NCBI GenBank assembly: GCA_041391785.1
Contig: JAWKNI010000015.1
Span: 8,398 to 72,397 of the forward strand
DNA from: Flavobacteriales bacterium
GTDB lineage: Bacteria > Bacteroidota > Bacteroidia > Flavobacteriales_F > PHOS-HE28
DNA: 64,000 nt
Direction of reading: 5' to 3'
Under the pieces are notes generated by a model. The model was not told the origin of the DNA, made no database searches, and saw only the letters and a list, made by a program, of their open reading frames with translations. The position numbers and the translations under genes are program-made. Within the stretch, counting starts at the first letter, position 1. Each line of letters starts with the position of its first letter. Shown here one piece after another: positions 7,340 through 10,998 of the stretch.

Positions 7340-7472
7340 CTACCCGTGAGGTACATGCCCGCTTCCCCGTAGACCTTGCCGCTGCCACGGCCGCGAGCCG
7401 GGCCTCGCAGTGACAGAAATCTGGATCCTTCAGGTCCTTGATAGTAGACCGCTCGCCGGTGCTCTTCATTTC
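7340..7472 (-). repeat. Diverged non-coding copy of the carB 3' end with a 34-bp hairpin insertion
   Basis: Minus strand reads EMKSTGE-(A)VY-IKDLKDPDF [TGTCACTGCGAGGCCCGGCTCGCGGCCGTGGCAG, 7382-7415] xKVYGEAGMYLT..TAG, compared with car[32 protein letters not shown]. Confidence 0.85.
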
Positions 7473-7481
7473 GTGTTTGCG

Positions 7482-8087
7482 TCAACACTGCAGAACTAAG
7501 GACCCTCTGTTCGCTTCATACGTATTGCTGTTGCTTGGATAATCCAGTATCGAACTACCCTCCAGAACTCTCTGCAAGAAGCCCACTAACGTGACAACAG
7601 AAACTGCTCGGAACGCATGAAGATTTGTAGGAGTGGCGGAACGAGGGGATTCTGAGCGCCTTGACAACACCAATGGCCATATTCAGCATACCCTCCTGTT
7701 CATTCCTCCCGTTCTCAGTGGCAACATCACCAAACGATACTTCAGTGGAGCTCGAACGAGGTTCTTCGTCTTAGCGTCGTATTCGAATGAGAACGACCTT
7801 GACACAAGGTCGGGACAATTTACGCGACATCCAGGCCTGTCTTCTTTCTCAAAACAGCCTCAAAATCAATCAAGGCACTTCGCTGATTCGGTGAACTCGA
7901 CCTTGAGCAACAGTCTGAAGCGCCAGGTAGCTTCCGGTCAATATGCAACCGTCAGTAGATAGTCTCCGATAGTGCTGAGCCATTGCTCAACTGGCTTACC
8001 GCAATAAGCACAGAAGTTGAGTTCAGGGTTTGTCCGATCGAGCTTATGGCAATGCCAGCAAGGCGATGACGAAGCAGGTGTGGACAT
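7482..8087 (-). CDS. Small AT-richer cargo ORF with N-terminal Zn-ribbon (CxxC-x12-CxxC), frameshifted; extent uncertain
   Basis: ATG 8087 gives MSTPASSSPCWHCHKLDRTNPELNFCAYCGKPVEQW..., open to 7938. Further open stretches in other frames continue to ~7482. Confidence 0.4.
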
Positions 8088-8091
8088 GCCC

Positions 8092-8188
8092 TTACCTGCT
8101 CAAGTAAATTCCGGGCTCTCCCCACACACCTGCCTCTGCCACGCCTGCTTCAAGAGCAAGCAGGCTCGCAGTGACAGAACGGATCCTG
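8092..8188 (-). repeat. Second diverged copy of the carB 3' end with a 41-bp hairpin insertion
   Basis: Minus strand CAGGATCCGTTC (DPF) [TGTCACTGCGAGCCTGCTTGCTCTTGAAGCAGGCGTGGCAG, 8136-8176] AGGCAGGTGTGTGGGGAGAGC..GGAATTTACTTGAGCAGGTAA reads RQVCGES-GIYLSR*. Confidence 0.75.
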
Positions 8189-8194
8189 GCTTCA

Positions 8195-10998
8195 TTACCG
8201 ACTAAGGTACATTGACCCTCCATGACTTGGCGGAAGAACGGATCCTTCAGGTCCTAATGAAATAGATTGCCTCCCAGTCGACTTCATCTCAGGTCCAAGC
8301 GACTTGTCCACGTTCGGGAACTTATCGAACGAGAACACGGGTACTTTGATGGCATACCCGTCCAACCGGGGTTTGAAAGCGAAGTCCTTCAACTTCGCAC
8401 CGAGCATGACTTTCGTGGCCCAGTTGACGTAGGGCTTCCGCTGTAGGCCTGGCGATGAAGGGCACGGGTGCGCTGGCGCGGGTTGGCCTCGATCACGTAC
8501 ACCACTCGGTCCTTGATGGCGAACTGGATGTTCACCAGGCCCACGGTGTGCAGGGCCAGGGCGATCTTGTGCGTGGGTGCTCGCGATCTGCTGGATCACC
8601 TTCTCGCTGAGGTCGAAGGGCGGGAGCACGGCATTGCTGTCGCCGCTGTGGATACCCGCCGGCTCGATGTGCTCCATGATGCCGATGATGCGCACCATCT
8701 CGCCATCGCAGATGGAATCGCTCTCCGCTTCGATGGCGCCATCGAGAAAGTGATCGATGATGTATCTTGTTGTCGGGCATCAGGCGCAGGATGTCGAGCA
8801 ATTCCGGTCCACGAGCTCCCTCCGTCGATCACCCACCTTCATCTTCTGGCCGCCGAGCACGTAGCTGGGGCGCACCAGCAGCGGGAACCCGGAGCTCCTT
8901 GCTCAGTTTCACGGCTTCCTCCGGGTTGTTCACGGCACCGAAGCGCGGGTACGGGATGTCCAGGTCGCGCAGCAGGGAGCTGAAACGCTCGCGGTCCTCG
9001 GCCATGTCCAGCGCCTCGTATTGCGTACCGATCACCGGTATGCCGTAGCGGTCCATCTTCTCGGCGAGCTTCAGCGCGGTCTGCCCGCCCAGCTGCACGA
9101 TGACGCCCTCGGGCTGCTCGTGCTGGATGATGTCGTAGATGTGCTCCCAGAACACGGGCTCGAAGCAGAGCTTGTCGGCCGTGTCGAAGTCGGTGCCACT
9201 CGTCTCCGGGTTGCAATTGATCATGATGGTCTCGTAGCCGAGCTCCTTGGCCGCGAGTACGCCGTGCACGCAGCTGTAGTCGAACTCGATGCCCTGGCCG
9301 ATGCGGTTGGGGCCGCTGCCGAGCACCACGATCTTCTTCTTGTCGCTCCTTACACTTTCATTCTCCTCTCGAAGGTGCTGTAGTAGTAGGGTTGCCCGCG
9401 GGGAATTCACCGGCGCAGGTGTCCACCAGTTTGTACACGCGTTTGATGCCGAGCTCTTCGCGCTTCTTGTACACCTGGCTTTCGAGGCAGCCGAGCAGGT
9501 GCGCGACCTGGCGATCGGCATAGCCCTTTTGTTTCGCTTCGAAGAGCAGGTCGCGCGGGATGGTGTCGAGCGTGTACCACCTCCTCCTCGGTGAGGATCA
9601 TGTCCTGATCTGCTTCAGGAACCAGATGTCGATGCGTCAACTCATGGATCTTGGTTGAACGGAATGCCCAACTTGATCGCATCGTACACGTGGAAGAGGC
9701 GGCTCCAGCTGGGGTTGGCGAGGCTTTCGAGCAGCACGGCGGTGGCATCGCGCGTCCTTGCCGTCGGCGCCAAGTCCGTTACGCTTGATCTCCAAACTCT
9801 GACAGGCCTTCTGCAACGCTTCCTGAAAGTTGCGGCCGATGCCCATCGTTTCACCGACGCTCTTCATCTGCACGCCCAGGCGACGATCGCTGCCTTCTGA
9901 ACTTGTCAAAGTCTCCAGCGCGGCACCTTCACGATCACGTAATCGAGCGTGGGTTCGAAGAAGGCGTTGGTGCCGGCGATCGGGTTCTCCAGTTCATCCA
10001 GGCGATGATACCCGATGGCGAGCTTGCTGGCGATCTTGGCGATGGGATAGCCGGTCGCTTTTGGAGGCGAGCGCACTGTTGCGTCACGCGCGGATTGATC
10101 TCGATGGCGTAGCATCTCCTCTTTCTCGTCGGGGCTCACTCGCGAACTGCACCGTTGCAGCCGCCCGCGAAGTCGCCGATGGCGCGCATCATCTTGATGG
10201 CCTCGGTGCGCATCTTCTGGTAGGTGCGGTCGCTGAGGGTCATCGCAGGCGCCACGGTGATGCTGTCGCCGGTGTGGATGCCCACTGGATCGAAGTTCTC
10301 GATGCTGCAGATGATGGCGACGTTGTCGTCCTTGTCGCGCAGCAGCTCCAGCTCGTACTCCTTCCAGCCGACGCAGGCCTCGTCGATCATCACCTTCGTG
10401 GATGGGGTCGATCTGCAGGCCGTGCTTCAGCAGCTTGTCGAACTCGGCGGGGTCCTTCACGAAGCTCGCCCTGGCACTGCCCAGCGTGTAGCTCGCGCGA
10501 TCACCAAAGGGAAGCCGAACTCCTGCGCCACCTTCTGCCTTCGAGGAAGGTGACGGTCCGGCTCGGCGCCATGGGCACGCCGATCTTCTCCATGAGCAAC
10601 CGGAACTGCTCGCGGTTCTCGGTGATGTCGATGGCCTTGGTGTCCACACCGATCATGCGCACGTTGTGGGCCGCCCAGATGCCGAGCTTCTCGCATTCGA
10701 TGGCGAGGTTCAGCGCGGTCTGTCCGCCCATGGTGGGCAGCACGGCGTCGATCCTGTGCTTCTGCAGGATCTCCTCGATGCTCTGCGTGGTGAGCGGCTT
10801 CAGGTACACGTTGTCCGCCGTGACCGGGTCGGTCATGATGGTGGCCGGGTTGCTGTTGATCAGCGTGACCTCGATGCCTTCCTTGCGTAATGACTTGCTG
10901 GCTTGTGAACCCGAATAGTCGAATTCGCACGCTTGACCGATCACAATGGGGCCGCTCCCGATGATGAGAACGGACTTGATGCTGTTGTCCTTGGGCAT
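8195..10998 (-). CDS. carB: Carbamoyl-phosphate synthase large subunit (short form without MGS domain); many indels, probably sequencing errors
   Basis: [30 protein letters not shown]; [18 protein letters not shown]; [21 protein letters not shown]; [13 protein letters not shown]; LGPEMKSTG...MYLSR*. Confidence 0.95.

Follow-up and report, generated by a model that had tools for sequence, protein, structure and literature searches.

The window analysed here is a stretch of 64,000 nt from the Flavobacteriales assembly GCA_041391785.1 (contig JAWKNI010000015.1, positions 8,398 to 72,397). It contains carB, the gene for the large subunit of carbamoyl-phosphate synthase, and behind it two additional copies of the gene's 3' end, termed tails below, each of them followed by a cargo gene. 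According to the frame map and a tblastn search against the genome, carB occupies positions 8195..10998 of the minus strand, with its ATG at 10998 and the stop codon TAA at 8197..8195. The metagenome-assembled genome (MAG) holds a single carB, and the tblastn search returns only the internal repeat of the gene itself. The last 33 carB codons are present three times in the window, all on the minus strand, and both additional copies carry a hairpin-forming insert at the same codon, as a first-pass annotation of the window had observed.

The in-gene tail (8195..8287, MKSTG...YLSR*) has a GC-rich second half, or R part, of the CGCCAAGTC... type and is readable as an intact tail protein only after three frame changes. 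Copy 2 (8092..8195) is a short unit that begins with ATGAAGCCA, overlapping the carB stop codon, and continues with GGATCCGTTC, an insert of 41 nt (8176..8136), and an R part running from AGGCAGGTG to a final TAA. Copy 3 (7340..7469) is a full-length tail. Its first half, the L part, runs from ATGAAG to GATCCAGATTTC with a 2-nt-deleted CTACTATCAAGG variant and is followed by an insert of 34 nt (7415..7382) and a diverged R part ending in GGTAG. The claim of the first-pass annotation that the copies have diverged mostly at synonymous positions fits copy 3 only partly, the end of which reads KVYGEAGMYLTG.

The two inserts are subtypes of one hairpin, designated type B. The 41-nt subtype (TGTCACTGCGAG-CCTGCTTGCTCTTGAAGCAGG-CGTGGCAG) at 8136..8176 in copy 2 shows a fold energy of -14.1 kcal/mol with a z of -2.2, and the 36-nt subtype, which reads 34 nt here, lies at 7382..7415 in copy 3. 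Both start with TGTCACTGCGAG and finish with CGTGGCAG around unlike inner stems, CCTGCTT/AAGCAGG in one and GCCCGG/C(C)GGGC in the other, in agreement with their initial description. The inserts sit between ...(G)TTC and AGG/CGG-CAG-GT in place of one Phe codon of the sequence DPFFRQV. A 12-mer of the insert occurs twice in the 3.36-Mb assembly, both times at carB tails, compared to a chance expectation of ~0.4, and the possibility raised beforehand that the hairpin is a genome-wide repetitive extragenic palindromic (REP) sequence does not hold in this genome.

The cargo of cassette 1 (7477..8087, minus strand) has its ATG at 8087..8085, 4 nt past the stop codon of copy 2, where it had been placed originally. 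The gene encodes a small zinc-ribbon-like protein with weak Pfam matches to DZR and DUF7575 in an indel-broken frame, and no counterpart was found among the relatives. The cargo of cassette 2 (5331..7169, minus strand), likewise indel-broken, encodes an AlbA_2/HATPase_c_4 protein with a C-terminal RRM (HATPase_c_4, E = 5.5e-12; RRM_1, E = 2.8e-9), and the combination of HATPase_c_4 with RRM_1 is an unusual domain pairing. Both cassettes belong to a low-GC island 3' of carB (~5330-8195; 46 to 53% GC versus ~62% elsewhere), at the end of which lies E2, a long hairpin element of ~75 nt (TTGTCGCAAGTGTTCC...GGCCACCTGTGAC; 5239..5313, minus strand). The palindrome GTGTT-TGCGTC-AACAC is indeed present at 7473..7488. 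Its suggested role as a boundary mark was rejected: the stem comprises 5 bp, the palindrome is found only at the cargo end of this genome, and the sequences upstream of the relatives' tails are unrelated.

Compared to relatives with 88% identity, carB and the island contain ~22 indels per 1.5 kb, each of 1 to 5 nt and distributed across carB. Because the neighbouring genes are intact and related genomes include nanopore-based MAGs from activated sludge, these indels probably stem from long reads left unpolished in a stretch that varies between strains, with a true pseudogene as the alternative. The richness in indels makes the exact insert lengths unreliable, and the 34-nt insert of copy 3 probably corresponds to the 36-nt form of the relatives.

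Arrays of carB tails in related genomes

A survey with the CarB C-terminus as the query covered 132 species of the GTDB order, almost wholly from one genus. A tail match was obtained in 97 of the 132 species, about 49 of which contain at least two co-oriented tails, with a range of two to six; this number is an underestimate, as tails split by a hairpin are missed. The pattern is thus neither a product of chance nor unique to the genome of the window, and the additional tails throughout the genus bear out the proposal that insertions recur at the 3' end of carB. Two to six tails are present in 64 of 101 scanned sequences (41 regions of the genus and 60 metagenome contigs). The commonest tail sequence is carried by 62 metagenome contigs from wastewater and lakes, all with co-oriented tails and most with carB sequence. 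Outside the genus, a second tail is found in only 1 of the ~290 genomes that represent 76 other Bacteroidia families, genome G257; class-wide arrays in the Bacteroidia were rejected on this basis, the three matches in G212 being separate full-length carB genes. No description of carB-tail arrays was found in the literature, and the layout, integron-like but without an integrase, appears to be undescribed. The arrays of G015, G083, and G117 (L036, L074, and L076) additionally contain big partial duplicates of carB, open over 360 to 600 codons, located 5 to 13 kb downstream of the intact gene and each equipped with its own tail.

Local tandem duplication followed by decay, or a chimeric assembly of several strains, would account for the locus without any mobility. 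Such an origin would be in line with the many indels in carB and the island of the window and with the contigs of many relatives, which break close to carB. However, arrays are also present in single-contig genomes (e.g., G049) and in Illumina assemblies and are therefore not an assembly artefact; moreover, the cargos are diverse and shuffled among species, and the tails of one genome differ by switches between codon families for Ser and Arg. Duplication or chimerism is a very improbable explanation of the window and is largely refuted at the genus level.

The tail repeat comprises 99 nt, divided into the L part, ATGAAGAGCACCGGCGAGGCGATCTACTTCATCAAGGACCTGAAGGATCCGTTC(TTC), and the R part, AGGCAGGTGTATGGGGAGCGGAGTATGTACTTGAGCAGGTAG, which covers about codons 19 to 33 of the tail, the last 14 codons of carB. 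The cargos fit closely between successive repeats. Among open reading frames (ORFs) of at least 50 codons, 26 have the TGA of A-TGA-AG as their stop codon and another 25 terminate 3 to 11 nt before it, and ~69 ORFs begin between -4 and +5 nt from the stop codon of a tail, often through an overlap of the form ATGA or TGATG. Most cargos are single small genes, mostly orphans, many of them without a Pfam match and with an N-terminus resembling that of lipoproteins or membrane proteins; toxin-antitoxin cargos (HicAB, VapBC-like, and ParE-like pairs) are present as well. ATGAAG was considered as a common core at both cargo ends and rejected, with 12 of 100 cargo ORFs starting with ATGAAG against a background of 3.6%, an enrichment but no rule. 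A short form of the unit, consisting of ATGAAGnnn, GGATCCGTTC, hairpin B, and R, follows directly behind a GC-rich in-gene tail in at least six other species, and the short form of the copy 2 type has a different cargo, or none, behind it in other species.

The region past the last tail of the relatives shows features of its own. A Flavo-1-like motif (RF01705) scores 32 to 34 bits, below the gathering score, just past the last tail on the strand opposite carB (L041, 1639-1720, plus strand; L067, 530-613, minus strand), and the sequence GGGCGTGCC...CTTTCCGCTGCAATC is found after many last tails.

Hairpins were tallied in 143 displaced tails. No hairpin is present in 52 of them (36%), the largest class, followed by ~43 tails with type C, 24 with type B, and 7 with type D; G013 contains both B and C. 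In-gene tails never bear a hairpin, and seeming exceptions are in-gene L parts paired with a following short unit. Type B, located at the L/R junction, has a modest fold stability, occurs in 36-nt and 41-nt subtypes with unlike inner stems, and has an outer stem that pairs with the first bases of R. In 11 genomes it does not occur outside tails, whereas REP clusters of G061 contain a 47-nt subtype at seven non-carB sites. Type C (GAGGAGCCTGCCCCGC...GCGGGG) lies a few bases before the junction, where it takes the place of GATCCG, and is restricted to tails. Type D (CCTGCCTGCC...GGCAGG) lies near position 12 of L and also occurs dispersed, nested in REP-like composite repeats.

These numbers do not sustain the idea that hairpin-bearing tails are the defining attachment sites of a capture system, given the 52 hairpin-free tails and the mere 24 with the hairpin first described. 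Two other types occupy other tail positions, one of them being dispersed, and type B itself is dispersed in G061. A single attC-like fold of the tail was likewise rejected, as shuffled sequences fold just as well as the 99-nt tail (z = -0.09 and -0.75), and the covariance models of Rfam match neither hairpins nor tails, the Flavo-1-like hits below the gathering score past the relatives' last tails being the only ones obtained. The hairpins are best read as secondary palindromic inserts in the non-coding half of displaced tails that spread together with the tails. Types B, C, and D would then be small REP-like palindromes, later settlers of the left half, and dispensable for the exchange.

Exchange of carB ends and cassettes

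The synonymous codon entropy of the in-gene carB of 33 genomes rises from about codon -28 and reaches its maximum at codons 19 to 32. In-gene Ser codons switch between TCN and AGY and Arg codons between CGN and AGR, and tails within one genome differ in the same way. Owing to these switches of codon family, the tails can be traced to distinct, once-functional carB ends, as the first-pass annotation had suggested. Closely related pairs of genomes, which differ by no more than 3% across 195 nt of upstream sequence, show a sudden rise in divergence that falls mainly within R and in one case spans the whole tail; in 3 to 4 of 7 pairs, the breakpoint is near position 57. The R part of carB itself is replaced time and again by synonymous versions. 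The same pattern is seen in G257, the genome of another Bacteroidia family (L152/L154, G257:C2 62207-64587), where the second carB tail is situated 2.2 kb downstream. The two copies of G257 are near-identical over more than 110 nt up to ...GATCC, after which ~16 of 50 positions differ.

The cassettes are shuffled as well. One and the same cargo recurs across species at different array positions or with different neighbours, as seen for the first cargo of G117 and that of G120 (G117c1 and G120c1, 96%), G083c1 and G117c2 (94%), G120c2 and G135c2 (93%), G045c2 and G053c1 (85%), and G005c3 and G121c4; a DUF1016/YhcG cassette is present in 9 genomes. Cargo copies are homologous from directly behind the preceding stop codon as far as ATGAAG or its vicinity. 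G117 and G120 have cargo X in common with a downstream L part that is 100% identical, and divergence sets in within the last bases of that tail. The stop codon tracks the downstream cargo in these two genomes, TAA with cargo A and TAG with cargo B, and the same pairing is found in G083 and G135. The linkage of a cargo to either flanking tail varies by family, which indicates recombination at various points within the tails. Upstream of ATGAAG, the carB duplicates extend over lengths between 120 nt and more than 875 nt, and this variability argues for homology-driven events.

The window is interpreted as showing two cassettes of an integron-like array that occurs across the genus, has the final 33 carB codons as its anchor, and is shuffled by homology-driven recombination between tails, an interpretation with about an even chance of being correct. 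Cassettes would be gained, lost, and reordered via recombination between tail repeats, ~100 nt in length, and adjoining carB sequence, most likely through the general homologous recombination of the cell following DNA transfer. Each event would supply carB with a new coding-competent end and move the old end downstream, and it is because of this renewal that displaced tails would resemble synonymous alleles. The cargos are probably expressed by read-through from carB together with translational coupling where stop and start codons overlap. The gradient of synonymous diversity into carB, the variable breakpoints, and the lack of a linked recombinase favour this homology-driven process.

Several observations weigh against it. 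Homologous recombination alone leaves unexplained how dozens of unrelated genes are packaged exactly from stop codon to ATGAAG, and over half of the L parts have the same sharp 5' start at ATGAAG. R is ungapped in 138 of the 143 displaced tails and L is intact in only 52, an excess of L lesions for which five or six founder events may already suffice. An inverted repeat, CCTGAAG-GATCCGTT-CTTCAGG (7 bp with an 8-bp spacer), lies exactly at the L/R junction, uses the non-preferred codons GAT and AGG, coincides with the insertion of hairpins B and C and with several breakpoints, and looks like the core site of a recombinase. The arrays are nearly confined to one genus. Furthermore, the layout of carB, copy 2, and copy 3 in the window is that given by the assembly.

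A dedicated, integron-type gene capture is possible but less likely. Here, a recombinase or nuclease encoded elsewhere would act in trans on the palindromic core at the L/R site and exchange units consisting of R part, cargo, and L part. As the exchange would take place within the end of carB, each capture would rewrite the last 14 codons synonymously, and a unit of this composition would always leave carB with a new working end; the tail copy would double as an attachment site and, for the foreign genes without promoters, as a spacer for translational coupling. The hairpins would flank the crossover point and either be part of the site or modulate it, with B and C counted as inserting exactly at the junction. 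Apart from the core with its non-preferred codons, the ORF-precise cassettes with their common ATGAAG boundary, and the restriction to one genus, such a system would be in line with the breakpoints near position 57, to which G257 (family f9) can be added, and with cargo family D, in which both the upstream R and the downstream L are linked to the cargo. In cargo families X, B, and C, however, neither flank tracks the cargo, the tails extend from 100 nt to over 875 nt, and hairpin-free tails form the largest class.

The search for a mobilizing enzyme also speaks against a dedicated system. No tyrosine recombinase (PF00589) was detected within ~20 kb of carB in 13 genomes of the genus, and Pfam scans of the cargo proteins yielded no integrase; G010, a genome without a second tail, has a PF00589 match 19 kb downstream of carB. 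Two scans of viral contigs revealed no tail copy, so that no free or phage-borne form was found. The tail as the attP of a phage or plasmid was rejected on the grounds of these empty scans and of the 62 metagenome matches described above, all co-oriented and most with carB sequence. The nuclease of the DUF1016/YhcG cassette was rejected as the driver since the cassette is missing from 8 of 20 array-bearing genomes, G000 and 7 others.

The first-pass annotation had also proposed looking for a co-occurring recombinase or HUH gene, and no consistently linked one was found. Y1 HUH genes (Y1_Tnp) are present in 20 of 20 tested genomes; one lies inside an array only in G016 (L034), where an intact gene of 182 aa, resembling REP-associated tyrosine transposases (RAYT), is located between two inverted copies of E2. 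RAYT-like C-terminal remnants follow E2 in G012, G003, G061, and G007. E2 (TTGTCGCAAGTGTTCC...GGCCACTTGTGAC) is present in one copy in the genome of the window and otherwise only in the carB arrays of relatives. A tie between RAYT and the arrays in general was rejected, with an intact gene in G016 and remnants in the four other genomes.

An improbable alternative ascribes the hairpins to the ends of small HUH elements of the IS200/RAYT type, which would target single-stranded DNA behind ...GTTC and bring a carB end of their own. Hairpin B always stands after (G)TTC or CTC and always before an R part, and the minimal unit of R part, ATGAAGnnn, GGATCCGTTC, and hairpin B is found without cargo in at least seven species. 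Together with the Y1_Tnp genes in all tested genomes and the RAYT-like gene between inverted E2 hairpins, this would fit such elements. Against them stand the lack of hairpin B in most cassettes, the single array with an intact RAYT-like gene, the nearest homologue of which in G000 lies on another contig with 24% identity, and the fact that neither a left-end hairpin nor a guide sequence was identified.

Relation to known cassette and repeat systems

In terms of layout, the carB arrays are closest to sedentary chromosomal integrons and to clusters of attC sites lacking an integron integrase (CALINs). In both, compact, co-oriented, promoterless cassettes, mostly of a single gene, follow one another in varying order, each gene with a repeat of ~100 nt behind it; orphan genes and toxin-antitoxin pairs are numerous, and one cassette is found at different positions in different genomes. 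Unlike integrons, the carB arrays contain neither attI nor intI, as the PF00589 search around carB shows. Their repeat has neither an RYYYAAC nor a GTTRRRY box and forms no attC hairpin with R''/R'. Instead, the repeat duplicates the final 33 codons of an essential gene in coding form, and every event replaces the end of this anchor gene.

Tycheposons, integrative elements arranged in tandem and separated by partial tRNA copies (bioRxiv 10.1101/2020.12.28.424599), show a similar succession of insertions at one target. In both cases, the units are bounded by a partial 3' end of the target as a direct repeat, newer units displace older ones outward, and the target gene is restored. Contrary to tycheposons, which carry integrases, the units of the carB arrays are single genes of 300 to 1500 nt without an integrase of their own, the target is the tail of a protein-coding gene and not a tRNA, and machinery for excision was not found.

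The minimal mobile elements of Neisseria are cassettes exchanged between conserved flanks through homologous recombination (PMC3787668). They resemble the carB arrays in the variation of gene content at a fixed point without dedicated mobility genes and in recombination tracts that extend into the flanking core gene. The difference lies in the homology, which in the carB arrays is a portable repeat on every cassette, so that arrays accumulate.

A further difference from Neisseria is that, to our knowledge, natural transformation is undocumented for the lineage of the window.

If confirmed, the arrays would represent a second bacterial route to integron-like libraries of small accessory genes, with the coding end of an essential gene as the anchor and no dedicated attI/attC system. 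This would account for the recoded carB ends and for the assembly breaks at this locus in common Flavobacteriales of activated sludge, and it would provide a defined site at which to seek orphan, toxin-antitoxin, and defence-like genes. The exact packaging of the cassettes is the same unsolved question as that of integron cassettes, made tractable here by the many natural variants.

The hairpins themselves invite a comparison with REP sequences, their paired forms (REPINs), and RAYT. Both are short palindromes, rich in GC and with a conserved head (GTCAC...), of which some genomes contain dispersed copies or clusters. The dispersed copies are a trait of hairpin D; hairpin B has its non-carB copies, seven in number, in G061 only, and hairpin C is confined to tails. 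A Y1 HUH gene flanked by inverted repeats is found only for E2 in G016. Unlike REP sequences, hairpins B and C are nearly confined to carB tails, at a constant codon, and no link between them and a RAYT was found. One region of a relative that contains no carB tail (L148, 3900-5550; G125:C79) shows clusters of composite repeats of ~160 nt around a small ORF, built from several hairpin modules, type D among them.

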